Counted from the stretch's first letter, positions 2,575 through 23,048 are shown. The stretch is DNA of 64,000 bases from an uncultured Actinomycetota bacterium (GCA_963770565.1 CAVYQE010000011.1:388072-452071); one strand, 5' to 3'. The notes: generated by a model not told the origin, from the sequence alone. Made by a program: numbers and translations.

Positions 2575-3948
2575 ATGGCTGTACCACCGCCCTCGTCCGG
2601 CATCGATGCCGGCCGGGTGGAGGAACTGCTCGGTCGCGAGCGCGAGCGCTTCATCGCGACCCATCCGCGCTCGATCGACTACCGGCAGCAGGCAGAGCGC
2701 TCGCTGCTTTACGGCGTACCGATGAATTGGATGACCCGCTGGTCGAGCCCCAGCCCGATCGTCGTCGCGGGTGCACACGGGGCCGAGCTCGAGGACATCG
2801 ACGGCAACACCTATGTCGACCTGTGCCTGGGCGACACCGGCGCGATGGCTGGTCATGGCCCGAAGCCGGTCGTCGATGCACTCACGGCCCAGATGAGCCG
2901 CGGCGCCACATTCATGCTGCCGACCGAGGACGCGATCTGGGTCGGCGACGAGATGAGCCGTCGGTTCGGTCTGCCGTACTGGCAGTTCTGCCTGACTGCA
3001 TCCGATGCGAACCGGTTCGTCCTCCGGCTGACCCGTCAGATCACCGGCCGGTCGATCATCGTCGTGCACAACTGGTGCTACCACGGCTCGGTCGACGAGA
3101 CGCTGGCGTCGCTGTCGGACACCGGTACCGTCGTGCCGCGCGAGGGCAGCGTCGGGCCGTCCCTCGATGTCACAAAGTCGACCCGGGTGGTCGAGATCAA
3201 CGATCTGGCCGGCCTGGAGAAGGCCCTGGCCGACGAAGCGGTCGCGTGCGTGCTGGTCGAGCCGGCGCTGACCAACATCGGCATCGTGTTGCCCGATCCC
3301 GATTACCACCGCGAGCTGCGCCGAATCACCCTCGAGACCGGCACCTTGCTCGTCATCGACGAGACCCACACGATCTGCGCCGGCCCCGGCGGCTACACCG
3401 CGCGTGAAGGGCTCGAGCCGGACTTCCTGACGATCGGCAAGACGATCGGCGGCGGGGTGCCGGTCGCGGCGTACGGCATGAGTGAAGGCGTGGCCGCGTC
3501 GATCGTCGAGCGGACGTTCTGGCAGGAAGCCGACGTCGGCGGCATCGGCGGAACGCTCGCGGGCAACGCGCTGTCGCTCGCGGCCGCTCGCGCGACGCTG
3601 TCCGACGTCCTGACCGCCGCCGCGTTCGAGCAGATGGAGTCACTCGCGATCCGGCTCTGCGACGGGATCGACTCGGTGATCACGGCCAACCGCGCGCCAT
3701 GGCACGTGACCCGGCTCGGCTGCCGGGCGGAGTACCTGTTCAGCCCGGCGATGCCGCGAAACGGCGCCGAGGCCGCCGCTGCCGGCGACGCCGACCTCGA
3801 CGGTCTGATCCACCTCGCGATGCTCAACCGGGGGGTCGTGCTCACGCCGTTCCACAACATGGCGCTGATGTCGCCGGCGACGACGGCGGCCCAGATCGAT
3901 GCGCATACCTCGGCGTTCGAGGAGATCGTCGCCGACCTGCTGGCCTGA
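2575..3948 (+). CDS. class-III (omega) aminotransferase, glutamate-1-semialdehyde aminomutase-like subgroup
   Basis: PLP fold-type I class III motifs (GNTYVDLCLGDTGAMAGHG; LVIDETHT; GKTIGGG). Confidence 0.8.
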   Translation: MAVPPPSSGIDAGRVEELLGRERERFIATHPRSIDYRQQAERSLLYGVPMNWMTRWSSPSPIVVAGAHGAELEDIDGNTYVDLCLGDTGAMAGHGPKPVVDALTAQMSRGATFMLPTEDAIWVGDEMSRRFGLPYWQFCLTASDANRFVLRLTRQITGRSIIVVHNWCYHGSVDETLASLSDTGTVVPREGSVGPSLDVTKSTRVVEINDLAGLEKALADEAVACVLVEPALTNIGIVLPDPDYHRELRRITLETGTLLVIDETHTICAGPGGYTAREGLEPDFLTIGKTIGGGVPVAAYGMSEGVAASIVERTFWQEADVGGIGGTLAGNALSLAAARATLSDVLTAAAFEQMESLAIRLCDGIDSVITANRAPWHVTRLGCRAEYLFSPAMPRNGAEAAAAGDADLDGLIHLAMLNRGVVLTPFHNMALMSPATTAAQIDAHTSAFEEIVADLLA

Positions 3949-3951
3949 CTC

Positions 3952-3975
3952 CGGCCGGGGCCGCGCCGACCCCGG
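3952..3975 (+). terminator. GC hairpin CCGGGG-N-CCCCGG after the aminotransferase stop
   Basis: Inverted repeat immediately 3' of the stop at 3948; no U-tract. Confidence 0.3.
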
Positions 3976-4006
3976 CGGGAGTCGTTGACAACCTCAACGC
4001 AGGTTG

Positions 4007-4035
4007 TTGACAATCCTTCCAGACGACAATACCTT
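4007..4035 (+). promoter_or_regulatory. promoter-like TTGACA-N17-TACCTT ahead of the enolase operon, with GTTGACAA direct repeats at 3984-3991 and 4005-4013
   Basis: Consensus -35 hexamer with 17-nt spacer to a TANNNT -10; second GTTGACAA copy and CAACCT..AGGTTG dyad just upstream; strong SD GAGGAGG at 4071-4077 before GTG 4082. Confidence 0.35.
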
Positions 4036-4081: not shown

Positions 4082-5380
4082 GTGCCGCACGCCGGCGAAC
4101 GGGAGATTCGGGCGGTTCACGCCCGAGAGGTGCTTGACTGCCGTGGTTTGCCCACGGTGCAGGTCGATGTCGTGCTCGGGGACGGGTCGCTCGGCCGCGC
4201 CGACGTACCGTCGGGCCGATCGACCGGGGCCTACGAGGCCCGCGAGCTGCGGGACGGCGGCTCGCGCTATGGCGGGTACGGCGTCCGCCAGGCGGTCGCC
4301 AACGTCGTCGACGTGCTCGGGCCGGGGGTGCTCGGCTGGCCGGCGGATGCCCAGCGCGCTCTCGACGGTCGCCTGATCGAGCTGGACGGCACACCGGACA
4401 AGTCGGCGCTGGGCGCCAACGCGCTGCTCGGGGTCTCACTGGCCGCGGCCCGCGCCGCGGCGACATCGGCCGGGCTGCCGCTGTATCGCTACCTGTCCTC
4501 CGACGGTCACCTGCTCCCGGTGCCGTTGGTGAACCTGATCAATGGCGGACGGCACGCGGCCGGACAGCTGCAGTTCCAGGAATTCATCGTCATCCCGACC
4601 GGCGCTCCGACGTTCAGTCAAGCGCTGGCCGAGAGTTCCGAGGTCAACCTTGCCCTCGGCGAGGTGCTCGAAGCGAAGTACGGCCGCAGTGCGCTCGCTC
4701 TCGGCGACGAAGGTGGTTACGTGCCGCCGGTGTCGGACCCGCGCGAGGCCCTCGAGTTGCTGCACGTCGGTGTCGAGAAGGCCGGCTACACCGGCCGGTT
4801 CCAGTACGGGCTCGATTGTGCGGCGACGCATTTCTACGACGACGAGGACGGCACCTACCGGTTGGCCGGCACGCCGATGTCGGCCGAGGAGCTGCTCGGG
4901 CTCTACCTCGAGCTGATCCGCGACTTCGGGATCACCACGATCGAGGATCCGTTCGCCGAGGACGACTTCACCAGCTTTGCCGCGTTGACCAAGGAGTCGG
5001 GCATCCAGATCGTCGGCGACGACCTGTTCGTCACCAACACCGCGCGACTGCTTCGCGGGATCGAGGTCGGTGCCGCGAACGCGTTGCTGTGGAAGGTCAA
5101 CCAGATCGGCACGTTGTCCGAAGCACTCGACGCCGCCGCGGTGGCGACCAGTCATGGGTACGGCGTTTGCGTCTCGGAGCGGTCCGGAGAGACCGAGGAC
5201 CCGATCATCGCCGACCTGGTGGTCGCCCTCAACGCCGGCCAGATCAAGACCGGCGCACCGGTGCGTGGCGAACGGACGTCGAAATACAACCGGTTGCTGC
5301 AGATCGAAGAAGAGCTCGGTACGGCCGCGCGCTACCCGGGCGCCCAGTTCCCCGCGATCAGCGTGAGCCGCGGCTCGTGA
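4082..5380 (+). CDS. eno: enolase (phosphopyruvate hydratase) paralog
   Basis: Enolase signatures AREVLDCRGLPTVQVD, SGRSTGAYEARELRDG, SERSGETED, KVNQIGTLSE; GTG start after SD. Confidence 0.9.
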   Translation: MPHAGEREIRAVHAREVLDCRGLPTVQVDVVLGDGSLGRADVPSGRSTGAYEARELRDGGSRYGGYGVRQAVANVVDVLGPGVLGWPADAQRALDGRLIELDGTPDKSALGANALLGVSLAAARAAATSAGLPLYRYLSSDGHLLPVPLVNLINGGRHAAGQLQFQEFIVIPTGAPTFSQALAESSEVNLALGEVLEAKYGRSALALGDEGGYVPPVSDPREALELLHVGVEKAGYTGRFQYGLDCAATHFYDDEDGTYRLAGTPMSAEELLGLYLELIRDFGITTIEDPFAEDDFTSFAALTKESGIQIVGDDLFVTNTARLLRGIEVGAANALLWKVNQIGTLSEALDAAAVATSHGYGVCVSERSGETEDPIIADLVVALNAGQIKTGAPVRGERTSKYNRLLQIEEELGTAARYPGAQFPAISVSRGS

Positions 5381-6843
5381 CGATCGAGGCCGCCAAGGCC
5401 GATGCGATCGCAGGCGTGGCTGAGCGGGCGGCCGATCTCGCGCCGATCGCGAACGCCGATCGCCTGCTCGACCACGGCTCCGCGGAGCTGCGGCGGGTCG
5501 CCCTCGACGTGGTCGCGGCCGGGCTGCGGGCGGCCGACCCCGGGGCCGCGGTCGACCGCACGGTCGAGGTCGACGGGAGCCTGCTGCGGGTAGCGGGCCG
5601 GACCTTCGACCTCGATGCCGCGGGCTCGATCGTCGTACTCGGTGCGGGCAAGGCGAGCCTGCCGATCGCGGCGGCGTTGGAAGCAAAGCTCGGCGACCGG
5701 ATCAGCCGCGGACTGGTCGTGCGGCGGGCGGGCGCCCCCGGCACGCTGGAACGCATCGAGGTGATTGACGCCGATCACCCGGTTCCCAGCGAGGCGAGCG
5801 TGGTTGCCGGCCGGCGGCTGGTCGAGATGGCGGCGACCTGTGCGCCCGGCGATCTGCTGATCACCGCGTTCACCGGTGGCTCCTCCGCGCTGGCGTGCCT
5901 GCCGCCGGACGGCGTCTCGTTCGAGGCTAAGCAGGCACTGCACTCGTTGCTGCTCGACTGCGGCGCGTCGATTGCCGAGATCAACGCGGTCCGCAAGCAC
6001 GTCTCGGCGCTCAAAGGCGGCCGGCTGGCGATGGTGGCTCGCGGTGCCAGCATCATCAACCTCACACTGTCTGACGTGGTGGGCGATGCGGTCGATCTCT
6101 TGTGCGACGTCGTGGTGCAGGACAGCACCGATCCGGCCGACGCCATCGCCGTGCTCAACCGCTACGGGCTGTGGGACTCCGTCGACCCGCAGATCCGGCA
6201 CCACCTCACGAGTGACGCGGCAGCCTCGCCCTCGCTGGCGGATCGCGACATCACGACGTGCGTGCTGGTCACCGGATCGACGGTCGTCGAACGGATGGCG
6301 GACCGGGTGCGGGCGATCGGCCGGACCCCGGTGGTGCTCGGGTCGGCGCTGGCCGGCGACGCGGTCTGCCTCGGCGGGTTGCTCGGGGCCCTCGCCTGTG
6401 AGTCGTCGACCCTCGGCCGCCCGTTCCCGCCGGGCTCGGTGCTTGTCGCGGCCGGTGGTGAGGCCACCGTCTCGATCCACCGCGGGGCGGGTGTCGCGGT
6501 CGGACGCGGTGGCCCGAACCAGGAGGAGGCGATTGCCTTCGCCAAGGCGATCGGCGGCGGCCATGTGCAGGCATCCGGGGTGTTCGTCGACAGCGACGGG
6601 TCCGACGGCGGCACGGATGCGGCCGGCGGCTGTGTCGACGGCGGCACCGTGAGCCGGGCGGCAGAGCTCGGCGTGGATCTTGACTCCGGGATCGCGGCCC
6701 ACGACTCATCGGCGCTGCTTCAGCAGCTCGGCGACCTGGTGGTGACCGGACCGACCGGCACGAACATCTCCGACCTGTTGGCGATCGCGATCGACGGAGT
6801 CGTCGAGCCGGTGCCCGGCGACTCCGGGGCGGGCCCGGCATGA
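5377..6843 (+). CDS. glycerate 2-kinase (MOFRL/DUF4147 family)
   Basis: GTG 5377 overlaps the enolase stop (GTGA); translation matches glycerate kinase/hydroxypyruvate reductase-like MOFRL proteins; the ORF-track 5' extension 4816-5376 is out-of-frame overlap with eno. Confidence 0.75.
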   Translation: MTIEAAKADAIAGVAERAADLAPIANADRLLDHGSAELRRVALDVVAAGLRAADPGAAVDRTVEVDGSLLRVAGRTFDLDAAGSIVVLGAGKASLPIAAALEAKLGDRISRGLVVRRAGAPGTLERIEVIDADHPVPSEASVVAGRRLVEMAATCAPGDLLITAFTGGSSALACLPPDGVSFEAKQALHSLLLDCGASIAEINAVRKHVSALKGGRLAMVARGASIINLTLSDVVGDAVDLLCDVVVQDSTDPADAIAVLNRYGLWDSVDPQIRHHLTSDAAASPSLADRDITTCVLVTGSTVVERMADRVRAIGRTPVVLGSALAGDAVCLGGLLGALACESSTLGRPFPPGSVLVAAGGEATVSIHRGAGVAVGRGGPNQEEAIAFAKAIGGGHVQASGVFVDSDGSDGGTDAAGGCVDGGTVSRAAELGVDLDSGIAAHDSSALLQQLGDLVVTGPTGTNISDLLAIAIDGVVEPVPGDSGAGPA

Positions 6844-8459
6844 CCCGGCACGACGTCGTCATCGTCGGCGGCGGCCACAACGGTCTGGTCGCGGCGTTCT
6901 ACCTGGCTCGGGCCGGCTTGAAGCCGCTGGTGCTGGAGCGCCGGCCGTTCGTCGGGGGCGCCTGCGTGACCGAGGAGTTCGCGCCCGGGTACCGCGCGTC
7001 GACCGGCGCCTATGTTCTCGCGATGCTGAGGCCGGCGATCTGGCGCGACCTCGAGCTCGACCGGCGCGGGATCGTGGTCAGCCCGGCCGGCCCGTCGCTC
7101 AACCTGCTGCCGGACGGTACGTCGCTCCTGCTCGGCGATGATCCGAACGAGGCGATGGACGCGGTCCGGCACCACTCGGCGCGGGACGCGGTTGCGCTCG
7201 GCCGATTCGAGACCGAGCTCGGCCAGCTCGCCCAGGTGTTGTTGCCGACGATCGACATGGCCGCGCCGGATCCGTCGATGCACCATCTGCGCGACTGGCT
7301 GACCGCAGGCCAGATCGCGCGGACCGGGCTGAAGCAGCGCAAGCAGATCGCCGGCACCCTGCGGTTGCTGGTGGCGTCGGCCGGCGACTACCTCGCGGAG
7401 CGGTTCGAGAGCGAAATCGTGAAGGTCGCACTTGGTTGGCACGCGATCAACGACAGCCTGGTGGGGCCCTCGAGCCCGGGCACCGGCTACGTGCTCTTGC
7501 ACGACCACGCATCCGGCGACCCGGACGGCGGGATCCGGCAGTGGGGCTTCGTCAACGGCGGCATGGGCCGGGTGACCGCGGTGATGGCCGAGGCCGCGAT
7601 CGAGGCAGGTGCCACGATCCGCACCGACGCGGAGGTGGCGTCGATCCGCGTCGGCGGCGATCGCGCCACCGGCGTCGTGCTCGTGGGCGGTGAGGAGATC
7701 GACTGCGACCTGGTGCTGTCGAACGCCGACCCGAAGCGCACCTTCCTCTCGCTGTGCGAGAAGGTCGCCCTGCCTGACGACTTCGTCGCGTCGATGCAGA
7801 CGTTTCGCTGCGAAGGCACCAGCATCAAGATCAACCTCGGCCTCGCGGAGCTGCCGCGGGTGCGCGACGACCGGTCGGGCGATGCGCAGGACTATCACCG
7901 CGGAATTCTCGAGATCGGCCCGCCGCTCGGTGACCTCGACGTCCAGCAGGCGCACGCCCGCCGCGGTACTCCAGGGACCGGCACCCACATCGAGGTCTGT
8001 TTCCCCACCGTCCACGACCCCTCGCTCGCGCCCGAGGGCCGCCACATCGCGACCATCGACGTCAACTCGCAGCCCTACACGCTGGCCGAAGGCGGATGGG
8101 ACGACATCAAGGAGCAGGTTGCGGACCGGGTGATCGGCGAGTTGGGTGAGCTGATGCCCAACCTGCCCGGCGCGGTGGTCGCCCGCCAGGTGCTCAGCCC
8201 GCTCGACCTCGAGCGGGTGCTCGGGATGACCGGTGGGCACGCCCTGCACGGCGACATGACCCTGGACCAGCTGTTCATCTTCCGCCCGACGCTGCATTAC
8301 TCCGACTACCGCACTCCGGTCGAAGGCTTGTATCTGTGCGGCGCAGGAACTCATCCCGGTGGTGGTGTGACCGGCGCCAACGGGCGCAACTGCGCGGCCG
8401 CAGTGATCTCCGATCGACGCCGGGGTCGGCGCCGGTGGTCCGGCCGGTCGGCATCATGA
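6840..8459 (+). CDS. FAD/NAD(P)-dependent oxidoreductase, phytoene-desaturase/amine-oxidase-like (COG1233)
   Basis: N-terminal dinucleotide fold VVIVGGGHNGLVAAFYLARAG; ATGA overlap with the preceding stop. Confidence 0.75.
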   Translation: MTRHDVVIVGGGHNGLVAAFYLARAGLKPLVLERRPFVGGACVTEEFAPGYRASTGAYVLAMLRPAIWRDLELDRRGIVVSPAGPSLNLLPDGTSLLLGDDPNEAMDAVRHHSARDAVALGRFETELGQLAQVLLPTIDMAAPDPSMHHLRDWLTAGQIARTGLKQRKQIAGTLRLLVASAGDYLAERFESEIVKVALGWHAINDSLVGPSSPGTGYVLLHDHASGDPDGGIRQWGFVNGGMGRVTAVMAEAAIEAGATIRTDAEVASIRVGGDRATGVVLVGGEEIDCDLVLSNADPKRTFLSLCEKVALPDDFVASMQTFRCEGTSIKINLGLAELPRVRDDRSGDAQDYHRGILEIGPPLGDLDVQQAHARRGTPGTGTHIEVCFPTVHDPSLAPEGRHIATIDVNSQPYTLAEGGWDDIKEQVADRVIGELGELMPNLPGAVVARQVLSPLDLERVLGMTGGHALHGDMTLDQLFIFRPTLHYSDYRTPVEGLYLCGAGTHPGGGVTGANGRNCAAAVISDRRRGRRRWSGRSAS

Positions 8460-9841
8460 CGGCCGGGGGCTTCGATGGCCGACCGGTGCCCGATCTCGTG
8501 ACGGCATTGCCCGGCCCGAAGAGCCAGGCGATCCGGGCGCGTGAGCGCGCCGTGCTCTATCGCGGCACCGGTGAGCATCTCGCGCCGGTCGTCATGGCCC
8601 GCAAGTCCGGCTACGTGATCGAGGACGTCGACGGCAACCTGTTGCTCGACATGGCGAGTGCCTCGGCGTCAGTGCCGCTTGGCGCGTCCCCGCCGCGGAT
8701 GGTCGAGGCCGCGTCGGCGGCACTCGCGCGGTTCGGCAACGAAGACACCCATGCGTTCACCAGCGAGTACGTCGCGCCGCTCGCCGAGCGCCTGATCGAG
8801 TTGTCTCCGCCGCGCTGCACCCGGGTCGACATCGCGTTGAACGGCACGGAGGCGATCGAGATCGCGGTGCGGCTGATGCGCCGTGCGACCGGCCGGCCGA
8901 TCATCATCGGCTTCCTCGGTGGCTATCACGGCGAGTCCTCGACGACCGCGTCGCTCGGTGCCGAGGCCGCGGAGATCAGCCGTGGGGTCCGGGGTCTCGT
9001 ACCCGGCTTCGTGCATGTCCCGTATCCCAACCCGTATCGCAACCCCTTCGGCGCACCGCGGCCGGGCGGCTGCGGTGACGCGACCATCGACTATCTGCGC
9101 GACTTTCTGCTGTTCCACGCCATCGACCCGGCCGACGTCGCGGGCGTCATCATCGAGCCGGTGCTCGGATCGGGCGGGGTCGTGGTGCCGCCTCCGACGT
9201 TCTTCCCGGCGTTGGCGCAGTTGTGCGACGAGCACGAATGGCTGCTGTGCGCCGACGAGGTCAAGAGCGGCTGCGGGCGCACCGGCACCTTCCTCGCGGT
9301 CGAGCGGCTCGGAGCCGACCCGGACCTGATCTGCCTCGGCAAGGGCCTGGGTGGGGGAGTCATGCCGATCGGCGCGGTGCTCGGCTCCGAGCGCGTGCTC
9401 GGCGAGTTCGACGACGTCTCGACCGGGAGCACGTGGGCCTGGCTGCCGGCCAGCTGCGCGGTCGCACTGGTGATGCTCGAGGAGATCACCAATCCCGGTG
9501 TGCTCGAGCACGTCAGGGCGATCGAGGCCAGGTCGCAAGAGGTCTTCGGCCGGTTGCTCGACCGGTTCGACGCAGTCGGCGACGTACGGTCCGTCGGAGC
9601 ACTGACCGCGGTGGAGTTCGTCACGGATCGGGACAGCAAGCAGCGCGACACACAGCTTCAGGATCGAGTCGCGCAGGAGATGTTCAACCGCGGCCTGGTC
9701 GCGGACTCGAGCACGACGTCGCTGAACATCCAACCGTCGTTGATCACACCGCTGGAGGTGATCGACCAGGCGGCGGACATCGTCGCTGACTCGATCCGAG
9801 CGGCGATGGCCCAACCGAGATCCGGGGATGCCGAGCGCTAG
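8456..9841 (+). CDS. class-III aminotransferase (paralog of 19464..20891)
   Basis: ATG 8456 overlaps upstream stop; motifs IIEPVLGSGGVVVPP, DEVKSGCGRTG, LGKGLGGG. Confidence 0.85.
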   Translation: MTAGGFDGRPVPDLVTALPGPKSQAIRARERAVLYRGTGEHLAPVVMARKSGYVIEDVDGNLLLDMASASASVPLGASPPRMVEAASAALARFGNEDTHAFTSEYVAPLAERLIELSPPRCTRVDIALNGTEAIEIAVRLMRRATGRPIIIGFLGGYHGESSTTASLGAEAAEISRGVRGLVPGFVHVPYPNPYRNPFGAPRPGGCGDATIDYLRDFLLFHAIDPADVAGVIIEPVLGSGGVVVPPPTFFPALAQLCDEHEWLLCADEVKSGCGRTGTFLAVERLGADPDLICLGKGLGGGVMPIGAVLGSERVLGEFDDVSTGSTWAWLPASCAVALVMLEEITNPGVLEHVRAIEARSQEVFGRLLDRFDAVGDVRSVGALTAVEFVTDRDSKQRDTQLQDRVAQEMFNRGLVADSSTTSLNIQPSLITPLEVIDQAADIVADSIRAAMAQPRSGDAER

Positions 9842-9856
9842 GAAGGGAGTCGGCCC

Positions 9857-10822
9857 ATGAACTGGACCGAGTACCTCGTCAAACGGGTGGCGTTCACCAT
9901 CGTGACGATCTTCGTCGCGATCTCGTTGAACTTCCTGCTGTTCCGCGTGCTGCCAGGCACTGCGGTCACCAACCTGGCCCGCATCCCCAACGCCTCGCTC
10001 GCACTCAAGCGGCACCTGCGCGCCGAGTTCGGCCTGAACCTCTCACTGCGCGCGCAGTACTGGGACTACCTCAAGCAGCTCGCGCACGGCAACCTCGGCG
10101 TTTCGTTCGCCAACCAGCAGCCGGTCTCGACGAACCTGAAGAACGCGCTCTACAACACGCTCCCGGTGGTCACGATCGCGACCGTGCTTTCACTGATCGT
10201 GGGCATCGGCACCGGCGTGCTCTCCGCGTGGCGGCGCGGTTCGTTGACCGACCAAATCAGCACCAACACTGCGATCGTGCTCTATGCCTTGCCGACCCAG
10301 TGGATCGCCCTCGTGCTGCTGATCGCCTTCTCGAAGTACCTCCCGACCGCCGGCACGTCCAACCCGTTCGCGGTCGTGTCGCCGCCGTTCTGGCAACACC
10401 TCGATGACGTGCTTGCGCACATGATCCTTCCGGCCATCACGCTGGTCCTCACCCTGTACGGCGGCAATACGCTCATCGTCCGGTCGGCCTTGCTCGAGAC
10501 GCTCGGCGAGGACTACATGCTGACGGCGCGGGCGAAGGGAATCGGGCGCGGCCGAATGATGTGGTCACACGCCCTGCGTAACGCGATGTTGCCGATCACC
10601 ACGCTGGTCACGCTGTCGCTGGGCTCGATCGTCGCCGGCGCGATCCTGATGGAAGTGGTGTTCTCCTGGCCGGGGATCGGCTCCGCGCTCTACCAGGCCG
10701 TTCAGCAACGGGACTACCCGATGCTGCAGGGCGGCTTCCTGATCTTCACGGTCTCGGTGGTGCTGTTCAACCTCATCGCCGATCTTCTGTACTTCCGGCT
10801 CGACCCGAGGATCTCGCAGTGA
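9857..10822 (+). CDS. ABC transporter permease, DppB/OppB family
   Basis: Six hydrophobic segments; typical peptide/opine permease N-terminus. Confidence 0.85.
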   Translation: MNWTEYLVKRVAFTIVTIFVAISLNFLLFRVLPGTAVTNLARIPNASLALKRHLRAEFGLNLSLRAQYWDYLKQLAHGNLGVSFANQQPVSTNLKNALYNTLPVVTIATVLSLIVGIGTGVLSAWRRGSLTDQISTNTAIVLYALPTQWIALVLLIAFSKYLPTAGTSNPFAVVSPPFWQHLDDVLAHMILPAITLVLTLYGGNTLIVRSALLETLGEDYMLTARAKGIGRGRMMWSHALRNAMLPITTLVTLSLGSIVAGAILMEVVFSWPGIGSALYQAVQQRDYPMLQGGFLIFTVSVVLFNLIADLLYFRLDPRISQ

Positions 10823-11781
10823 CGAGCGTCGCGGTTGCCCCCACTCCGGTGGTGCCGCCCCGCCAGTCGAGCCTGCGGCGCGGTTGGCACAGCTTCGTGT
10901 CCCTTCTGCGGCAGCGGCCATCGGCGGCGGTCGGCCTGGGAATCCTGCTGTTCTTCGTGATCATCGCGCTGATCGCACCGTGGATCGCGCCGCACTCGAC
11001 CCAGGCCGCTAGCGGCCCGGTGTACGCCGGCCCATCAGCCCATCACTGGTTCGGCACCGACGACGGCGGCGTCGACGTACTGAGCCTGGTGCTCGTCGGC
11101 GGGCGGGTCTCGCTCGTCGTCGGCGCGGCTGCCACCGGTGTCGCGATGGGTGTCGGCGGGCTGATTGGGATCCTGTCCGGCTACTTCGGTGGCTGGATCG
11201 ACATGTTGCTGATGCGGATCACGGACTACTTCCTCGTCGTACCCGACTTGGTCCTGATGATCGTGGTCGCGACTTTGTGGGGTCCGAGCCTGTCGCACGT
11301 GATCCTGGTGATCGGCCTGCTGCTGTGGACTTCGACCGCCCGCATCGTGCGCGCGGAGGTGAAGAGCGTGCGGGAGCGGGTGTACGTGCGCCGGGCGCGC
11401 ACGATGGGTGCGGGACACCTGACCACCGTCTTCCGGCACGTGCTGCCGCAGATCGCGCCGTTGCTCATCGCGAATACGGTGCTCAGTGTCGCGATCGCGA
11501 TCTTCGACGAGACCTCGCTGGACTTCCTTGGCCTCGGCGACCCCAACGGCACGAGCTGGGGCATCATCCTCGAGCACGCGAACGACCGGACCGCGGTGAG
11601 CTACGGAGCCTGGTGGACGGTCGTCCCGCCGGGCGTGTGCATCGCCGCGGTCATTGTCGGTTGCTACCTGCTCGGCCAGGCCCTCGAGGATGCCCTGAAC
11701 CCGAGGTTGCGGATCTCGCACTTCGCGTTTCGCAGCTGGCGGTTGCGACCACTCGTCGGGCGCGGGAAGGACGCGCTATGA
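10819..11781 (+). CDS. ABC transporter permease, DppC/OppC family
   Basis: ATGA overlap with previous gene; permease topology. Confidence 0.85.
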   Translation: MTSVAVAPTPVVPPRQSSLRRGWHSFVSLLRQRPSAAVGLGILLFFVIIALIAPWIAPHSTQAASGPVYAGPSAHHWFGTDDGGVDVLSLVLVGGRVSLVVGAAATGVAMGVGGLIGILSGYFGGWIDMLLMRITDYFLVVPDLVLMIVVATLWGPSLSHVILVIGLLLWTSTARIVRAEVKSVRERVYVRRARTMGAGHLTTVFRHVLPQIAPLLIANTVLSVAIAIFDETSLDFLGLGDPNGTSWGIILEHANDRTAVSYGAWWTVVPPGVCIAAVIVGCYLLGQALEDALNPRLRISHFAFRSWRLRPLVGRGKDAL

Positions 11782-13817
11782 GCCTGCTCGAGGTGGATGG
11801 GCTGGAGGTCTTCTTCGACCTTCCGGACGGCGAGCTGCACGCGGTGCAGGGCGTCGATCTTCGTCTGGATGCCGGCGAGCGGCTGGCGATCGTGGGGGAG
11901 TCCGGATCCGGCAAGACGACCACCGTGCTCGCACTGATGGGACTGCTCCCGCCGACCGCATCGATCTGTGGCACGGTTCGGCTGAACGGTCGCGACCTGC
12001 TCTCCGGTGGAGAGCGCGGCACCGACGACTGGCGCTGGCGTGACATCGCGACCGTCTTCCAGGGCGCGATGAACGCGCTCAACCCGGTGCGCAGTGTCGG
12101 CTGGCAGATCACCGAGCCGATGCGGGTGCACGACACCGCGACCGGCACCGCGGCCCGGGACCGAACCCGCGAGCTGTTGTCCCTGGTCGGCCTGCCACCC
12201 GCGATCGAGCAGGCATTCCCGCACCAGCTCTCGGGCGGGATGCGGCAGCGGGCCGCGATCGCGATGGCGCTCGCCTGCGAGCCGAAGGTGCTGCTCGCCG
12301 ACGAGCCGACGACGGCACTCGACGTCGTGGTTCAAGCCGGCATCCTCGATCTGCTGGGGCGGCTCAGTGAGGAGCTCGACCTCGCCCTCGTGTTGGTTAC
12401 GCACGACCTCGCGGCCGCGGCGGCTACCTGCGGTCGACTGGCGGTCATGTACGCCGGCCGGCTGGTCGAGTCCGGGCCGGTCAGCTCGATCGCCGGTGCG
12501 CCGGAGCACCCGTACACCCGCCAGCTGTTCGCTGCGATCCCAGACCTCTTCGACCGCCACTCGGTCCACGCGATTCCCGGTGCTCCGCCCCGGCTCGACC
12601 AGCTGATCGAAGGATGTGCGTTCGCGCCTCGGTGCGACGTACGGATCGAGCGCTGCAGTCACGAGCTGCCGCCGCTGGTCCAGATCGGCGAGAGCTGGCA
12701 GGCCGCATGCTTGCTGTCCCGACCCGGTGCGGGTGGTGGTCCGGCCGCCCCGGTTGCGTCGGCGGCGCCCGCCGACGCCCCGCTCGAACGAGCGGATGGA
12801 GTGCTGCAGACGGACGATGTCGCGTTGGCCCTGGACGAGGTCTTCGTCACCTTCCCGCGCCGCCGTCGGATGGTCGACCTGGTCCGCGGCCGCCCGCGCG
12901 CGATCGTGCGAGCGGTCGACGGGTTGTCACTGTCGATCGAGCCGGGGGAGATGGTTGCTCTCGTCGGCGAGTCGGGGTCGGGCAAGACCTCGACCGCGCA
13001 CGCCATCGTCGGCAATGTGTCGACGAGCGGTGGGCACGTAGTGGTATCCGGCGTCGACCTCGGGACCATGGACCGCAAGGCCCGGCGCCGGTTGCGCCAG
13101 CACGTCCAGCTCGTCTACCAGGATCCGTACGAGTCGCTCGACCCGCGGATGCGGGTGCGGTCGATCCTGGATGAGCCGTTGCGGGTTAACCACATCGGAC
13201 GCAACCGCAAGGAGCGGCAGCGGCTCGCTGCCGAGGCGTTGACCCAGGTCGGTATGGATCCGCCGGAGCTCTTTCTCGACCGCTTCCCGCACGAGCTGTC
13301 CGGGGGTCAGCGGCAACGGGTGGCGATCGCAGCCGCGCTCGTGATGAACCCGACCATCCTGGTCGCCGACGAGCCGGTCTCGATGCTCGACGTGTCGGTC
13401 CGGGCCGAGGTGCTGGAGGTGCTCGACGCACTGCGCCGGACGAAGTCGGTCGCGATCATCATGATCACCCACGACCTGTCCACCGCGGCGCACTACGCCG
13501 ACCGGATCGCGGTGATGTATCTCGGCCGGATTGTCGAGCAGGGTCCGGCCACCCAGGTGGTCGCCGCTCCCGGCCATCCTTACACCCGCGCCCTGGTGGC
13601 TGCGGTGCCGGTCGCTCACACGCAGCGGCGACCGACGAGCGTGCTGACGGGCGAGATTCCGGACGCGGCCGCGATCCCCGCCGGCTGCCGTTTCGAGCCG
13701 CGGTGCCCGATCGCCGTGCCTGAGTGCCGCGAGATCGACCCCGCGTTCGTGCTGGTCGGCGCTGCGCACACCGCGGCGTGTATCCGGGCCGAGATCGCGG
13801 CGGGAGTGAGCTCATGA
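11778..13817 (+). CDS. fused double ABC ATPase (DppD-DppF type)
   Basis: Two Walker A sites (GESGSGKT twice), two LSGGQ/LSGGMRQR signatures; ATG 11778 overlaps permease stop; ORF-track start 11277 is a spurious extension. Confidence 0.85.
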   Translation: MSLLEVDGLEVFFDLPDGELHAVQGVDLRLDAGERLAIVGESGSGKTTTVLALMGLLPPTASICGTVRLNGRDLLSGGERGTDDWRWRDIATVFQGAMNALNPVRSVGWQITEPMRVHDTATGTAARDRTRELLSLVGLPPAIEQAFPHQLSGGMRQRAAIAMALACEPKVLLADEPTTALDVVVQAGILDLLGRLSEELDLALVLVTHDLAAAAATCGRLAVMYAGRLVESGPVSSIAGAPEHPYTRQLFAAIPDLFDRHSVHAIPGAPPRLDQLIEGCAFAPRCDVRIERCSHELPPLVQIGESWQAACLLSRPGAGGGPAAPVASAAPADAPLERADGVLQTDDVALALDEVFVTFPRRRRMVDLVRGRPRAIVRAVDGLSLSIEPGEMVALVGESGSGKTSTAHAIVGNVSTSGGHVVVSGVDLGTMDRKARRRLRQHVQLVYQDPYESLDPRMRVRSILDEPLRVNHIGRNRKERQRLAAEALTQVGMDPPELFLDRFPHELSGGQRQRVAIAAALVMNPTILVADEPVSMLDVSVRAEVLEVLDALRRTKSVAIIMITHDLSTAAHYADRIAVMYLGRIVEQGPATQVVAAPGHPYTRALVAAVPVAHTQRRPTSVLTGEIPDAAAIPAGCRFEPRCPIAVPECREIDPAFVLVGAAHTAACIRAEIAAGVSS

Positions 13818-15490
13818 GAGCGCGCCGGCTGGTGATGGCGACGATGCTGGCCGCGGTCGTGCTCACCGGCTGCGATCGCAGCTTCCCGCTGAACGATCCC
13901 GGCGTACCGGGGCCGGGTGGCTTCCTGCGGATCGGCACGATCTCGATCATCAACACGATGAACCCGTGGATCACCGACGACCAGCTCGCGCTGAGCACGC
14001 AGAGCGACATCTATCCGCGGATCCTCCAGTACAACCTCAAGACGCTGGACTTCGAGCCTGACTTCGCGTTGAAGTGGGTGCTGTCGAACCACGGTCGCAC
14101 CTGGACCTTCACCACGCGGGCCGGCGCGGAGTGGTCGGACGGTCAACCGCTGACCGCGCAGGACGTCGCCTGGACGATCGCCACGATGGTCCGGCTGCAC
14201 AAGGGGCCGGCCGCGCTGTGGGCGAGTGCGGTGGCGGGCGTGGTCAGCGCGACCGCACCGAACCCGACAACGGTCGTCGTGACCTACCGCAAGCCAGAAG
14301 GCGATGCGCTGTCGAACCTCGAGCAGATCCCGGTGCTGCCGGAGCACGTGTGGGCGAAGTACGCCGCGGGCAATGGCAAGGCACTTCGCAGCCAGCCGAA
14401 CACACCGTCCGCCGGTCATCCGGTCGTGTCGGGCGGACCGTTCATGTTCGTCAAGTACACCTACAACGAGGCGATCGTCTTCGCCCGCAACCCGCACTAC
14501 TACGGCCCGCCCGCGCACATCGCGGGCTTCGGCGTCGAGCTGTTCTCCAACGACGACGCACTGGTCGCTGCCATGCGGGCCGGCGAGGTCGATGCGGCGA
14601 CTGGTGACCCCAACCTGCCGCCGACCGACGTACGCCCGCTGAAGTCAGGCGGGTTCAAGATCCTGGCCGAGCCGGCGGTTGCCTACAACGACCTCATCAT
14701 CAACACCAACCCGAAGAAGGTCGCTCATCGCGAGCTGCTGAACCCCAATGTCCGCAAGGCTTTTGAGTACGCGATCGACCGCAACACGATTGATCGAGTG
14801 GCCTTCCTCGGCTACGCCCAGCCGGCCCAGTCGATCGTGCCGCCGGCGACGGGCAAGTGGTACGACCCGGCGGTCAAGCCGCTCCCGTACGACTTGTCCA
14901 AGGCCAACGCGCTGCTCGACGCGGCCGGCTACAAGCGGGGACCGGGCGGGATCCGGATCGCCGACGGTCATCAGATGTCTTACACCGTCTACGTCTCGAC
15001 CGACAACGGCGGCGAAGGTGTGCGCAGCGGCGAGATCATGACTACCGACTTCCGCAAGATCGGCGTCAAGCTCACGTTCCGGCTCACCGACGACGACGCG
15101 CTCAACTCGGATATCTTCGCCGACCACTATCGGAAGTACGACATGGCGATGTGGGGCTGGGACACGTTCATCGACCCGACGTACATCCTCAACGTGCTGA
15201 CTTGCTCGCAGTGGTACGACAACAGCGACTCGGGCTACTGCAATCCGACGTACGACAAGCTCTACAAGGAGCAAGGGGCGACGACGAACGTCGTCAAGCG
15301 GCGCCAGCTGGTCTATCGCATGCAGGAGATCCTTGCGAACGCGCGGCCCTACATCATCCTGCAGGACTTGGATGTGCTGGAGGCCTGGAATCCGCGCTGG
15401 ACCGACATCGTCGAGTCACCGGATGGATGGTTCAACCAGTTCTCCTCCGACGGCCAGACCTCGATCCGCCTGGCGCCCGGCGCGGGCTGA
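13814..15490 (+). CDS. ABC substrate-binding lipoprotein, family 5 (DppA/OppA-like)
   Basis: ATG 13814 overlaps ATPase stop; lipoprotein signal MRARRLVMATMLAAVVLTGC; SBP-5 fold. Confidence 0.85.
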   Translation: MRARRLVMATMLAAVVLTGCDRSFPLNDPGVPGPGGFLRIGTISIINTMNPWITDDQLALSTQSDIYPRILQYNLKTLDFEPDFALKWVLSNHGRTWTFTTRAGAEWSDGQPLTAQDVAWTIATMVRLHKGPAALWASAVAGVVSATAPNPTTVVVTYRKPEGDALSNLEQIPVLPEHVWAKYAAGNGKALRSQPNTPSAGHPVVSGGPFMFVKYTYNEAIVFARNPHYYGPPAHIAGFGVELFSNDDALVAAMRAGEVDAATGDPNLPPTDVRPLKSGGFKILAEPAVAYNDLIINTNPKKVAHRELLNPNVRKAFEYAIDRNTIDRVAFLGYAQPAQSIVPPATGKWYDPAVKPLPYDLSKANALLDAAGYKRGPGGIRIADGHQMSYTVYVSTDNGGEGVRSGEIMTTDFRKIGVKLTFRLTDDDALNSDIFADHYRKYDMAMWGWDTFIDPTYILNVLTCSQWYDNSDSGYCNPTYDKLYKEQGATTNVVKRRQLVYRMQEILANARPYIILQDLDVLEAWNPRWTDIVESPDGWFNQFSSDGQTSIRLAPGAG

Positions 15491-15503: not shown

Positions 15504-16784
15504 TCAGGACGAGTTGACCATGCCTCGGCCCAGCCAGTCGTTGCGATCACGAACGCCGGGGAGCGCGAAGAAGTAGCCGCCGCCGACCGGGCTGACGTAG
15601 TCGACCATCGGCTCGCCGACCAGGCGGGCCTGGACGGCTTCGAACTGCCGCTTGATGTCTTGCTGAAAGCAGTTGAAGACCAGGCCCAGGTCGAGGTTGC
15701 CGTTGAGGTCGACGCCCCGGTCGTAGTTGTAGCCACGGCGGTAGATCCGGCTCGGCTCGGTGCGGTTGGTGCGCGGGTTGGCCAGTCGGATGTGCGCGTC
15801 GAGCGGAATCACCTTGCCGAGTGGATCGGCGTGGTAGTCGGGGAGGTCGGCTTCGGTGACACCGTCGAGCGGCGCGCCGGTGTCGCGGAACCGGCCGATC
15901 ATCGTCTGCTGCTCGTGCAGTGAGACCCGGTCCCAGAACTCGATGAACATCTTGATGATCCGGCAGACGTGGTAGCTGCCACCGATCGCCCAGGTCGGCT
16001 CGCCGTGACCTTTCTCGACCCAGAGCAGCTGTCTGGAGACGGCCGGTCGATCGATCTCGGGGTTGGCGATGCCGTCTTTGAAACCGAGGTGGTTGCGCGG
16101 TACGCCGGACGGTCGCGACGGCGAGATGAAGCCGTCGATCCGCCAGCGAATCGCCATCCCGCCGCGGGTGTGCTTGGCCAGATCGCGCAGCGCGTGGATC
16201 GCCGTATCGGCGCTGCCCGCGCAGATCTGCGCGATTAGGTCGCCGCCGGTCTGGGCCGGGTCGAGGTTGTCGTTGGGGAACGAGCGCATCGGGGTGAGAT
16301 GGCGCGGTTTCGCCCCGGCCAGGCCGTAGCGGTGGTCGAACAGGGTCGACCCGACCCCGACCGTCATCGTGAGGCCGTCGGCCGGTACGTCGGGTCCGAG
16401 CGTGCCGCTGTCGGCAGGTGGCGCGCCGACTCCGAGGTTGCGCGGCGTGCCGCCGGCGGTGAGGAAGCGGGCCCGGTGGGTGATCGTGTGGAACAGCTCG
16501 ACGAGCTCGTTGCGATGCTCGGCCGTCACGTCGAACGCGGCGAAGCAGGCGGCCGGTGGCGGCGGAGTGCTGATGCCCGCTTGGTGGGCGCCGTGGAACG
16601 GCACCGGCGGCAGGTGCGCGGCCGGATCGCGAATGGTCGGAACCTCAGGTGGTTCGTCAGCCTCGCCGGGGCGCGGATGCGCTCGCGTCGCGGCCTCGGC
16701 CGGCGTGAGTCCCGCCCCCGCGAGCGCCGCACCGGCCGCCACGATCCCGGAGCGCCCGAGGAACTGCCGGCGGTCGATGGTCAT
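15504..16784 (-). CDS. efeB: Tat-secreted Dyp-type peroxidase / deferrochelatase EfeB
   Basis: Twin-arginine signal MTIDRRQFLGRSGIVAAGAALAGA; Dyp peroxidase family sequence. Confidence 0.85.
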   Translation of the reverse strand: MTIDRRQFLGRSGIVAAGAALAGAGLTPAEAATRAHPRPGEADEPPEVPTIRDPAAHLPPVPFHGAHQAGISTPPPPAACFAAFDVTAEHRNELVELFHTITHRARFLTAGGTPRNLGVGAPPADSGTLGPDVPADGLTMTVGVGSTLFDHRYGLAGAKPRHLTPMRSFPNDNLDPAQTGGDLIAQICAGSADTAIHALRDLAKHTRGGMAIRWRIDGFISPSRPSGVPRNHLGFKDGIANPEIDRPAVSRQLLWVEKGHGEPTWAIGGSYHVCRIIKMFIEFWDRVSLHEQQTMIGRFRDTGAPLDGVTEADLPDYHADPLGKVIPLDAHIRLANPRTNRTEPSRIYRRGYNYDRGVDLNGNLDLGLVFNCFQQDIKRQFEAVQARLVGEPMVDYVSPVGGGYFFALPGVRDRNDWLGRGMVNSS

Positions 16785-18001
16785 GACTTTCCGATCGTCA
16801 GCAGGTCGGGCACCGGCGCCAGGATGTTCAGGACGCGGCCGACGGCCGAGTCGACCGCGTCACGACTGCGCCGGGGCAGGTCGGCGACCGCGACCCACGC
16901 GCCGCTCTTCGCTCGGGTCGCGTTCACCGCTGCGGCCAGCCTGGTCAGCGCCTTGCGAGCGTGCGAGACGAGGTGTGACGAGCGCGGCCTGATCAGTTGG
17001 GCCAGCAGGCCCAGCAGCTCGCGGGTGCCCGCAACGTCAGCCCGCACTGACGCCAGGCTGGTGCCGCTGCCGTAGTCGTCCTGCCCGGTGAGGGAGTCGC
17101 GCAGCGCGTCCTCGAGGATCTCGTGGCAACGCAGTGGCAGGCCGCTGACACCTGCGGTGGTCAGCGGGAGCCACTGCGAGATCGGCGGCGTCGTCAGCCG
17201 CGACACGGCGCGGGCGAGAGCTTTGGCATCCGTAGTTGCGGCAGCGATGTCCGCGCGGGTCCACAGGTCGTACTCGACTTTGTGGAAGCCGGTGAACCTC
17301 GGGCTCGACGTGCCGCCGACCAGCCCGGCAGTCGTGCCGTCGATGGTGCGGCCCAGGGTGCCGAATGCGCTGTAGGCACCGTCGTCCTGACCGATCCGAA
17401 GCCAGGTCAGGTGCGCGGTGAGCGATGCCGTCTTCGCGTCGGCGACGTCGTCGCCGGCCAGGTCGGTCTCGAGCGCGTTCGTTTGGCTGGTGAGCAGGGC
17501 GAACTCGTGGCCGACGTAGGCCCGGTAGGACCTCATCGCGGGTGTCAGTTCGCCCCGGGTCACCGGTACGACCGGTGGCCCCGGTCCCCCGTGGTTCGGG
17601 TCGACCGGCACGGTCTGGACGTCGGACACTCGTGACGGCCGGCCGGTCAGGTCGCAGCCCCAGACGTATCGCCGGCCCCGGGCGAGGGTGACCACGAGCT
17701 CGCGCACCGAGTGCGGCTTGAGGTGTTTGACGGTCGCGACGATCGCGTTCGACCGGGGATGGAACAGGTAGATCGTGGCCGAGTACGCCGACCGGTTGGT
17801 GATCGCGAAGTGCGCGCGGCCGGGGTTGGGGGCATACCACCTCGGCGCGCAGGTCGTGGTGGTCACGTAGATCCGCTGGCCGCGAAGGTGGCCGCCGACC
17901 TGACCGGAGGCGGCAGCACCGCCCGCCGCCGGAAGTGACCCGTACGTCAGTGTGGTGGTGGCGATCGTCGCCACCACCACACTGCTCGTTCGATACCGCA
18001 C
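16781..18001 (-). CDS. efeO: iron-uptake component EfeO (cupredoxin + M75 imelysin-like domain)
   Basis: Signal peptide; HxxE motif (HEILEDALRD); overlaps the efeB start by 4 nt. Confidence 0.75.
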   Translation of the reverse strand: MRYRTSSVVVATIATTTLTYGSLPAAGGAAASGQVGGHLRGQRIYVTTTTCAPRWYAPNPGRAHFAITNRSAYSATIYLFHPRSNAIVATVKHLKPHSVRELVVTLARGRRYVWGCDLTGRPSRVSDVQTVPVDPNHGGPGPPVVPVTRGELTPAMRSYRAYVGHEFALLTSQTNALETDLAGDDVADAKTASLTAHLTWLRIGQDDGAYSAFGTLGRTIDGTTAGLVGGTSSPRFTGFHKVEYDLWTRADIAAATTDAKALARAVSRLTTPPISQWLPLTTAGVSGLPLRCHEILEDALRDSLTGQDDYGSGTSLASVRADVAGTRELLGLLAQLIRPRSSHLVSHARKALTRLAAAVNATRAKSGAWVAVADLPRRSRDAVDSAVGRVLNILAPVPDLLTIGKS

Positions 18002-19284: not shown

Positions 19285-19463
19285 CACGGTGTGCTCCTCT
19301 GTTTGGTGGGTCGCTAGGCGCCACTCGAGCGGCAAAGTAGCAGATTGCCTACAACAAGACAAGCCGATAATCTGATTGCCGTCAGCATAGTTCGGGGCGA
19401 GCTCCGGCTGAGGGATGCCCGGATCGACGCCGCGCTGGATGCATTCGCGAAGTTGGAGGTCGG

Positions 19464-20891: not shown

Positions 20892-20892
20892 T

Positions 20893-21050
20893 GTCCTGCG
20901 TCAGAAGTTGCCTGCCACCACTTGTGGCGCCCGACCGCCGCCTCGCGGCGTTGTCGTCGTCGGCGGTAGCTCCACTACCGCGCTCCTCCTTCGCCTTGCG
21001 AGTCCGGCGCCCGGATCACCACAACTGGCGGCGAACTTCTGACGCAGGAC
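20893..21050. repeat. 158-bp intergenic element bounded by perfect 17-bp inverted repeats (GTCCTGCGTCAGAAGTT ... AACTTCTGACGCAGGAC)
   Basis: Left arm 20893-20909, right arm 21034-21050; fills exactly the gap between two convergent stop codons. Confidence 0.4.
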
Positions 21051-21051
21051 G

Positions 21052-21558
21052 CTAACGGACCGCGGAGCGGGTCAGCCGGCGCCGCCGGCGCACGGTGTGG
21101 ACGACGAGCAGTCCGGCCAACAGAACTCCGGTGATGGCATGCCAGCGGATCGTGGTCGGGTGCCCGATGACCCAGTCCCAGATCCCGGACGCCAGCATCG
21201 CGGCGGTTAGCGATGCGAGGCCCAGGTCGGCGAGGGCCATCCGGCCCGAGCGGGTCCGCATGCTGCGCACCCGGACCAGCCTGGCGGCCAGGTTGGCAGT
21301 CGTCTGGCGCCGCTGAACGATATGGACGACGACGAGACCGACGAAGATCAGTCCGAGGCCGATGTGGATCGCCAGTACCGGCTCGAGCACGAGTGACACG
21401 AGCGCGGTCGCGATCAGCGCGAGGTGGACGCAGGTTCGCAAGACTGTCTGCCGGTCCCGCGCGGCCAACCGGGTACCACTCACCGGCACAGCGTGTCCCG
21501 GCCGCTCGCGCGCCGCATCAGGGGAGTCCCCGATCCGCACCCTGACCCGTTTCAGCAC
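21052..21558 (-). CDS. hypothetical membrane protein
   Basis: About four hydrophobic helices; start uncertain. Confidence 0.4.
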   Translation of the reverse strand: MLKRVRVRIGDSPDAARERPGHAVPVSGTRLAARDRQTVLRTCVHLALIATALVSLVLEPVLAIHIGLGLIFVGLVVVHIVQRRQTTANLAARLVRVRSMRTRSGRMALADLGLASLTAAMLASGIWDWVIGHPTTIRWHAITGVLLAGLLVVHTVRRRRRLTRSAVR

Positions 21559-22958: not shown

Positions 22959-23048
22959 TCCGCCGCTACCATAGTTGTTGCATTGTAAGCAATTTGGCCA
23001 TGGCTCGGCCGGGGGCGTCGGCGCGGGGTGGTCGAGAAGGGATCCGCG

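Follow-up and report, generated by a model that had tools for sequence, protein, structure and literature searches.

Background

Metabolic routes that depend on a glycerate 2-kinase normally pass their product, 2-phosphoglycerate (2-PG), to the housekeeping enolase. In the present study we describe an operon at positions 4082-15490 of a 64,000-nucleotide stretch of DNA from an uncultured Actinomycetota bacterium (CAVYQE010000011.1:388072-452071; the whole stretch is referred to as the window). Its eight genes encode an enolase paralog, a class-II (MOFRL) glycerate 2-kinase homolog, a flavin adenine dinucleotide (FAD) oxidoreductase, a class-III aminotransferase and an ATP-binding cassette (ABC) importer. 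With confidence a little better than even, the operon is taken to be the core of an island, under GntR control, for the uptake and breakdown of a small amino compound, the carbon of which would pass through glycerate to phosphoenolpyruvate (PEP) via a private kinase-enolase funnel.

A MOFRL kinase followed by enolase is found in the lower branch of the non-phosphorylative Entner-Doudoroff pathway of Thermoproteus tenax (glyceraldehyde to glycerate to 2-PG to PEP), where 2-PG joins the common lower glycolytic shunt via enolase and pyruvate kinase (PMC2063504). The likeness extends to the enolase and kinase of the window, which match archaeal structures best (Methanocaldococcus jannaschii enolase and PH0495, respectively), and to a variant island locus with an aldolase and an aldehyde dehydrogenase upstream. 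In contrast to that branch, the island enolase is a dedicated, GntR-linked paralog with glutamate in place of an active-site histidine, and it appears to be fed by an amine importer and transaminases rather than by a sugar-acid pathway.

Routes from serine through hydroxypyruvate and glycerate to 2-PG (the methylotroph serine cycle, Thermotoga) have the same order of aminotransferase, glycerate-level intermediate, MOFRL kinase and enolase. In those routes the aminotransferase is a class-V serine enzyme and hydroxypyruvate is reduced by an NAD(P)H-dependent reductase, whereas the island has aminotransferases of class III and, for the redox step, a CrtI-like flavoprotein. Neither the window nor four of the five loci scanned for precomputed Pfam families showed an NAD(P)H hydroxypyruvate reductase, the exception being locus L005. 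Methylotrophs are listed in Table 3 of PMC2063504.

Polyamine and omega-amine catabolism and the PhnR/PhnSTUV system for 2-aminoethylphosphonate have PotA/B/C/D-like genes and class-III aminotransferases in common with the majority of islands, together with a flavoenzyme matching Amino_oxidase and a PhnR-like GntR regulator. However, models specific to these systems all score below cutoff, the importer of the window is of the Dpp type, and we know of no polyamine or phosphonate pathway that ends in a glycerate kinase and an enolase. With Opp, Dpp and Nik importers the window shares two permeases, DppD/F-type ATPases with oligo_HPY tails and an SBP_bac_5 lipoprotein; unlike the usual arrangement, the ATPases are fused in one protein, the solute-binding protein (SBP) and permeases reach the cutoff of no specific equivalog, and another importer class occupies this place in most orthologous islands. 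Finally, clusters in Mycolicibacterium tusciae and Nocardioides bigeumensis share the flavoenzyme, a Pot-type importer and cupin_3 with the island, but differ from it by an APH-aminotransferase fusion and an ILVD/EDD dehydratase. A literature search for a cluster of this kind (enolase with glycerate kinase and aminotransferase; phosphonate; isoserine) found no description.

Conservation of the operon

One genome per species was scanned for relatives of the window enolase; 331 were found, and the best 80 loci of these were returned. All 80 came from metagenome-assembled genomes (MAGs), mostly of Solirubrobacterales and other Actinomycetota, the closest being a Frankiaceae MAG with 97% enolase identity. 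Genes were called in the window and in all loci with a GC3-based caller, which reproduced the expected genes. Domains were assigned by Pfam and NCBIfam profile searches against curated cutoffs, and PDB sequence matches were used for the nearest structures. Neighbouring proteins were clustered across loci, clusters were named by profile search, and co-occurrence was counted in 53 species-level loci with at least 8 kb of flank on both sides of the enolase.

The MOFRL kinase accompanied the enolase in 49 of the 53 loci (92%), as did one particular GntR/FCD regulator (49/53, 92%). The flavoenzyme was present in 48 (91%) and at least one class-III aminotransferase in 94%; the types represented by the three aminotransferases of the window, designated ATa, ATb and ATc, occurred in 31, 32 and 19 loci, respectively. 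Enolase, kinase, flavoenzyme and class-III aminotransferase were found together in 44 of 53 (83%). Homologs of the set therefore do co-occur in other genomes, and the genes constitute one conserved unit, as the original prediction had it. Frequent accessories were PhoX or PhoA (26/53, 49%), a Kbl-like acyltransferase (38%), SDR (36%) and cupin_3 (30%), followed by an AsnC regulator, a DMFA-like amidase and an M20 deacylase.

In the window, the eight plus-strand genes form one tightly packed, conserved unit behind a conserved promoter box (Table 1). Gene positions were as first described, and the profile searches upheld the domain assignments. All six predicted four-nucleotide stop/start overlaps are present, at 5377-5380 and 10819-10822 (GTGA) and at 6840-6843, 8456-8459, 11778-11781 and 13814-13817 (ATGA), although the one at 10819-10822 had been read as ATGA. 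ATb and the first permease do not overlap: a gap of 15 nt lies between them and contains a ribosome-binding site, GGAAGGGAG. Orthologous loci repeat the same overlaps. Stop/start overlaps are commonplace in high-GC operons (G+C of the window is ~70%), and the part that goes beyond chance is the gene content kept across genomes, rather than the overlaps. The transcription unit ends at 15490, because the EfeB- and EfeO-like genes downstream lie on the minus strand.

The island itself is larger than the interval 4082-15490 to which it had been limited, and includes a GntR gene, ATc and probably a phosphoesterase at 18-24 kb. The GntR gene, ~7.5 kb downstream of the SBP gene, encodes a protein 75-80% identical to the GntR directly preceding the enolase operon in loci L008 and L012; its best NCBIfam match is phnR_burk (139.9 bits, below the cutoff of 271.5). 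The aminotransferase encoded after the flavoenzyme in L019 shares 74% identity with ATc, which likely belongs to the same pathway. The phosphoesterase, a homolog of which (68% identity) adjoins the enolase on its upstream side in L014, is probably an island member. ATa, upstream of the promoter box, is a separate transcription unit yet a syntenic member of the island.

Promoter and upstream region

The promoter proposed upstream of the enolase, TTGACA (4007-4012) and TACCTT (4030-4035) with a 17-nt spacer, was confirmed. The promoter/operator box spans 4003-4035 and comprises GTTGTTGACAATCC, which contains the -35 hexamer, the spacer and the -10 element. Across eight orthologous loci the box sequence G(G/A)TTGTTGACA(A/T)TCC is invariant and the -10 element retains the form TAnnnT, while the flanks average 57% column identity. 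The conserved box has one exact match in the window, and no copy of the conserved 14-mer is found upstream of the ATc or GntR genes. This phylogenetic footprint is stronger evidence for a promoter than a consensus match alone. The direct repeat GTTGACAA exists as described (3984 and 4006), but matches to the 9-mer in the window are not above chance (12 against 6.95 expected). The 9-mer GTTGACAAC, not being enriched in the window, was rejected as a repeated operator.

Both the aminotransferase gene at 2575-3948 and the hairpin said to follow it are present. The hairpin (3946-3984) has a minimum free energy of -31 kcal/mol (z = -2.44; 5 of 200 shuffles fold as well) and no T-run, and a consensus terminator scan found nothing; it is possibly a terminator or an RNA end. 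Elsewhere, an AT-rich inverted repeat, TTGCATTGTAAGCAA, lies at 22975-23000 just upstream of the GntR gene. It is preceded by GTTGTTG, which resembles the left half of the enolase box and may mark an autoregulatory operator.

A variant enolase clade

The enolase passes the TIGR01060 equivalog (501 bits against a cutoff of 300; Enolase_N, 164.9 bits; Enolase_C, 350.8 bits). The best PDB match is the M. jannaschii enolase at 480 bits, with the Mycobacterium tuberculosis enolase at 436 bits; an exact-sequence look-up gave no matching record. The window enolase has relatives of 59-97% identity. In all, 198 members of its clade were aligned with three canonical enolases, two of these from PDB matches. 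The Escherichia coli sequence served for residue numbering only.

The magnesium ligands Asp246, Glu290, Asp317 and Ser42, the base Lys342 and the acid Glu209 are retained, as are Glu168, Gln167, His159, Arg371, Ser372 and Lys393, which include phosphate and carboxylate binders. These residues are identical in the window enolase and in 197-198 of the 198 clade members. The original prediction, which credited the enolase with all catalytic signatures, nevertheless went too far. One active-site histidine is missing, SERSGETED replacing SHRSGETED (His370 to Glu) in 198/198 members, and three further changes are specific to the clade: Glu251 to His (195/198), Ala41 to Arg (195/198) and His191 to Leu (197/198). 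His370 adjoins the phosphate-binding Arg371 and Ser372, Ala41 adjoins the magnesium-binding Ser42, and Glu251 is five residues past the magnesium ligand Asp246.

We take E. coli His370 to be the equivalent of yeast His373, an active-site hydrogen-bonding residue that is neither the acid nor the base catalyst. Among 150 family representatives clustered at 50% identity, 75 bear the active-site motif, and 18 of these 75 have Ala, Val, Gly, Ile or Glu at the His position. Since this position varies in other family members, the Glu-for-His change is compatible with retained enolase activity; it could instead mark an altered specificity. The window enolase is a putative 2-PG dehydratase. Two of the surveyed representatives, P0138 (SERSGQTED) and P0140 (SVRSGETED), ~50% identical, likewise lack the canonical His and have the GDEGG acid motif altered to GVEGG and GEDGG, which suggests that there are further enolase-like subfamilies.

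Most carriers of the island belong to Solirubrobacterales, the order that contains Solirubrobacteraceae. The canonical enolase of Solirubrobacteraceae has the His and Ala residues in 120/120 sequences and stands alone in its locus; its representative, P0151, shares 53% identity with the enolase of the window. There is no other enolase in the window, and among the loci and canonical matches compared no contig carries both the paralog and a canonical enolase. The window enolase is likely a second copy in its genome. Streptomyces SCO7638 is treated in the literature as a second glycolytic enolase only, and its placement in the SERSGETED clade could not be made.

The glycerate 2-kinase and the modular trio

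The kinase matches DUF4147 (218.9 bits; cutoff 23) and MOFRL (86.9 bits; cutoff 28.3), and aligns over its full length with PH0495 of Pyrococcus horikoshii (252.7 bits) and with the Thermotoga maritima glycerate kinase 2b8n (185.3 bits). It falls below two NCBIfam glycerate 2-kinase equivalogs (177.9 against 550 bits and 123 against 670 bits), both of which are archaeal lineage-specific models. Every characterised MOFRL kinase forms 2-PG (PMC2063504), so that an adjacent enolase is the logical next step; by analogy with these members, and from its adjacency to the enolase, the window kinase is predicted to convert D-glycerate to 2-PG. The predicted order of glycerate, 2-PG and PEP agrees with that study, and also with the recurrence of the enolase-kinase pair beside an aldolase/aldehyde-dehydrogenase module.

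This recurrence was seen in L011, L013 and L015, where an enolase 78-81% identical to that of the window, the kinase and GntR occur with FGGY kinases, a DeoC/LacD aldolase, aldehyde dehydrogenase and permeases. After the trio in these loci (~12.7-21.3 kb in locus coordinates) come genes for FGGY kinases, aldehyde dehydrogenase, an EamA transporter and an APC-family permease. In L013, which was read over its whole length, two FGGY kinases are intact, and the open reading frame of the DeoC/LacD aldolase (20169-21269) has a C-terminal DAO-type FAD domain. In L005 the trio is joined to a 2-hydroxyacid dehydrogenase. Both feeder combinations plausibly end in glycerate, and the modularity of the enolase-kinase-GntR trio fits a portable funnel from glycerate through 2-PG to PEP.

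A sister cluster was found in two cultured organisms, M. tusciae (L090, KI912270.1) and N. bigeumensis (L091), whose flavoenzyme homologs are 62-64% identical to that of the window and are accompanied by cupin_3 and a Pot-type importer. The same GntR is present in M. tusciae (54% identity), and N. bigeumensis has ATb, ATc and M20 homologs (74%, 81% and 53% identity, respectively). Where the kinase, enolase and ATa stand in the window, both have an ILVD/EDD dehydratase and an APH-aminotransferase fusion, and no enolase or kinase was found within the 10 kb read on each side. The ILVD/EDD dihydroxy-acid dehydratase may offer 2,3-dihydroxy acids such as glycerate another way out.

Flavoenzyme and aminotransferases

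The flavoenzyme has an N-terminal GxGxxG...E motif and matches CrtO (247.9 bits against a cutoff of 1000) and the crtI_fam model TIGR02734 (125.5 against 238.1) over the full length of both, below their cutoffs. It passes only the broad Pfam models Amino_oxidase (64 bits), DAO and NAD_binding_8.

ATa, ATb and ATc all match PF00202 over its full length (124.9, 267.7 and 262 bits; cutoff 30.5), and none reaches the cutoff of a substrate-specific equivalog (GabT, ArgD, PbfA, HemL and others). ATa passes the subfamily model NF005453, 'transaminase' (644.8 bits; cutoff 425). Its PDB match 5ykr scores 456.5 bits, the beta-transaminases 2yku and 4ao9 being weaker, and these matches assign ATa to a glutamate-1-semialdehyde-aminomutase/beta-transaminase-like subgroup. 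ATb matches 7vno (246.9 bits) and stays below PRK05769 (351 against 552 bits), GabT (239 against 507) and PbfA (243 against 525).

Importer and substrate class

The importer has the Dpp/Opp/Nik layout, with a pair of permeases, DppD/F ATPase domains with oligo_HPY, and a family-5 SBP. The fused ATPase passes NF008453 (520.6 bits; cutoff 408), and the SBP has a signal peptide with the lipobox LTGC. When compared with the DppA, OppA, NikA and CntA equivalogs, the SBP reached the cutoff of none, the best being nikA at 148.7 against 393 bits. Its best PDB matches are nickel-binding proteins at ~125 bits (8efz, 124.9); 8efz was discarded as a clue to the ligand of the SBP, as a nickel-binding protein that gives no ligand hint.

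Across the 53 islands, 85% have a PotABCD-like importer and 8% a Dpp-like one, which makes the peptide- or opine-like substrate of the original prediction unlikely. That the importer switches between the Pot and Dpp types speaks for a small amine, cationic or zwitterionic, rather than for peptides. Isoserine and the other compounds first named are guesses. Amino alcohols, hydroxy-amino acids or head-group-like phospho-amines are hinted at by the ATa subgroup, the PhnR-like GntR, the adjacent phosphatases and an APH-aminotransferase fusion in one island (L016), none of which is decisive. Ectoine, polyamines, 5-aminolevulinate, Amadori compounds or opines, glyphosate or aminomethylphosphonic acid, and ethanolamine were considered as substrates and rejected, as none explains the full gene set.

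Other features of the window

The coordinates of the island features are collected in Table 1.

Table 1 Features of the island in the window
Feature	Position	Strand	Basis
ATa, class-III aminotransferase	2575-3948	+	PF00202 124.9 bits; NF005453
GC-rich hairpin after ATa stop codon	3946-3984	+	Folding energy
Promoter/operator box	4003-4035	+	Footprint over 8 orthologous loci
Enolase paralog, SERSGETED clade	4082-5380	+	TIGR01060 501 bits
Class-II (MOFRL) glycerate 2-kinase homolog	5377-6843	+	DUF4147 + MOFRL; GTG start overlaps enolase stop
FAD oxidoreductase, CrtI/CrtO/amine-oxidase superfamily	6840-8459	+	Amino_oxidase 64 bits
ATb, class-III aminotransferase, GABA/ornithine-transaminase-like	8456-9841	+	PF00202 267.7 bits
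ABC permease, DppB/OppB type	9857-10822	+	BPD_transp_1 148.2 bits; ribosome-binding site GGAAGGGAG ahead
ABC permease, DppC/OppC type	10819-11781	+	BPD_transp_1 92.3 bits + OppC_N; GTGA overlap
Fused DppD-DppF double ATPase	11778-13817	+	Two ABC_tran + two oligo_HPY
Family-5 solute-binding lipoprotein (SBP)	13814-15490	+	SBP_bac_5 235.4 bits; lipobox LTGC
Phosphoesterase-family protein (PF04185), possible accessory	18037-19362	-	PF04185 96 bits
ATc, class-III aminotransferase	19464-20891	+	PF00202 262 bits
GntR/FCD regulator of island	23028-23753	+	Identity to enolase-adjacent GntR of relatives

An iron-uptake pair, encoding a Dyp-type peroxidase (EfeB-like) and an imelysin (EfeO-like), occupies 15504-17977 on the minus strand. 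Lying between the SBP gene and the phosphoesterase, ATc and GntR genes, it appears to split the island. A gene for EPSP synthase, a PEP-using enzyme, is found at 21645-23177 (minus strand), divergent from the island GntR gene, and the same adjacency recurs in L002/L012 and near L019. The longest open reading frame of this EPSP synthase has 510 amino acids (first start GTG), against 441 called in L002. A coupled TetR regulator/MFS efflux pair directly upstream of ATa (763-2489) is unrelated to the island. At 3-650 the start of the window truncates the gene of an EAL-domain (cyclic-di-GMP phosphodiesterase) protein, leaving its C-terminal part. The region 31576-64000 carries leuS, ComEC-like, LepA, HrcA, CorC/CNNM-type transporter and class-II tRNA synthetase genes, and these housekeeping genes place the island in the core chromosome. 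A 1087-amino-acid subtilase-like protein is encoded at 57534-60797 (minus strand).

Discussion

The gene content, gene order, coupling, promoter and cross-genome conservation of the island were observed; from these we infer each chemical step of the route, and the amine itself. The lipoprotein SBP and Dpp-type ABC importer would take up the compound, a task that would fall to a PotABCD-like importer in most relatives. The class-III aminotransferases ATa, ATb and probably ATc would then strip its amino group or groups, and the CrtI-like flavoenzyme would perform an oxidation or a reduction. The product would be D-glycerate or a direct precursor (glyceraldehyde, tartronate semialdehyde or hydroxypyruvate), to be phosphorylated by the MOFRL kinase to 2-PG, which the operon's own enolase would turn into PEP. 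GntR would control the island by binding the conserved GGTTGTTGACAATCC box. Of the import-to-PEP route originally proposed, the conserved unit and the kinase-enolase logic have stood, while the substrate class, the extent of the unit and the completeness of the catalytic signatures have not.

Several points weigh against this route. The step from the transaminase product to glycerate calls for a reductase or an aldehyde dehydrogenase, and neither is obvious in the island, which leaves an unusual job to the flavoenzyme. Accessories of the relatives, namely the Kbl-like acyltransferase, SDR, M20 deacylase, DMFA-like amidase, cupin_3 and PhoX/PhoA, are unexplained by a simple C3 route. With the Glu-for-His substitution and three other fixed changes, the substrate of the enolase may not be 2-PG. 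The activities of the island enzymes are predicted from homology, and no cultured carrier was found among the best 80 loci or the names of cluster members.

Four other explanations were weighed. In the first, which we regard as unlikely, the island serves mainly to scavenge phosphorus from amino-alcohol phosphates or aminophosphonates (phospholipid head groups, 2-aminoethylphosphonate-like compounds). The amine, once released by secreted phosphatases, would be imported and broken down. It departs from the route above in substrate and trigger only. The presence of PhoX or PhoA in 26/53 islands, sometimes in line with the operon, fits such a role, but half of the islands have no phosphatase. The window encodes a PF04185 phosphoesterase, as does L014 just ahead of its enolase gene, and the APH-aminotransferase fusion of L016 has what we take to be the kinase/phospho-lyase architecture for amino alcohols. 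The best model of the GntR is the phosphonate-associated PhnR, and the Pot-type parts also match PhnS2 and PhnT2; however, all of these scores are below their cutoffs, and no C-P-cleaving enzyme (PhnX, PhnA, PhnZ or C-P lyase) was seen.

A second explanation, which we consider quite unlikely, is that the kinase and the variant enolase act as a kinase-plus-lyase pair on a 3-substituted 2-hydroxypropanoate, eliminating the C3 group to give PEP. Examples of this route, which is not yet described, would be 3-sulfolactate via 2-phospho-3-sulfolactate to PEP and sulfite, or isoserine via 3-amino-2-phosphopropanoate to PEP and ammonium. The changes fixed in the clade (His370 to Glu, Ala41 to Arg and Glu251 to His) are at or beside active-site elements, but all residues known to do the chemistry are retained, and the His position varies among other enolase representatives, so specificity need not change. 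The sugar-type variant has a DeoC/LacD-family aldolase and an aldehyde dehydrogenase, the enzyme pair that produces sulfolactate in sulfo-glycolysis; against this, no gene for sulfite or sulfonate came to notice in the loci, and the transaminases evidently remove the amino groups. If true, such a pair would represent a new desulfonation or deamination of C3 acids that conserves the phosphate bond.

It is very unlikely that the enolase is the sole housekeeping enolase of the organism, lying by chance beside a transporter operon. It does pass the NCBIfam enolase equivalog cutoff, and the 64-kb window holds no second enolase. On the other hand, the clade keeps company with the kinase and GntR (49/53 loci each), its non-canonical residues are fixed, the M. 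jannaschii enolase scores above that of M. tuberculosis (480 against 436 bits), and Solirubrobacteraceae have a separate canonical enolase that is alone in its locus. Least probable of all is a nickel or metallophore (Nik/Cnt-like) importer with unrelated metabolic neighbours, for although the SBP matches nickel-binding proteins best (8efz and nikA), its scores are far under the cutoffs (393 bits for nikA), the transporter genes are translationally coupled to those of the enzymes, and a PotABCD-like importer holds the same position in 85% of islands.

Conclusions

In at least 49 species-level genomes, mostly of uncultured soil Actinomycetota and Thermoleophilia, a distinct enolase subfamily is tied to the kinase and to a GntR regulator. 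The trio is found joined to at least two distinct feeder modules, and so defines a portable 'glycerate to PEP' cassette. Its fixed Glu-for-His change poses a simple question on enolase specificity. The analysis also flags a widespread, uncharacterised amine-catabolic island, and the sister cluster of M. tusciae and N. bigeumensis offers an experimentally tractable entry to the amine pathway. Naming the substrate would give a function to a large group of 'phytoene-desaturase-like' flavoenzymes and PRK07046-type transaminases, and would explain a common trait of abundant soil bacteria.

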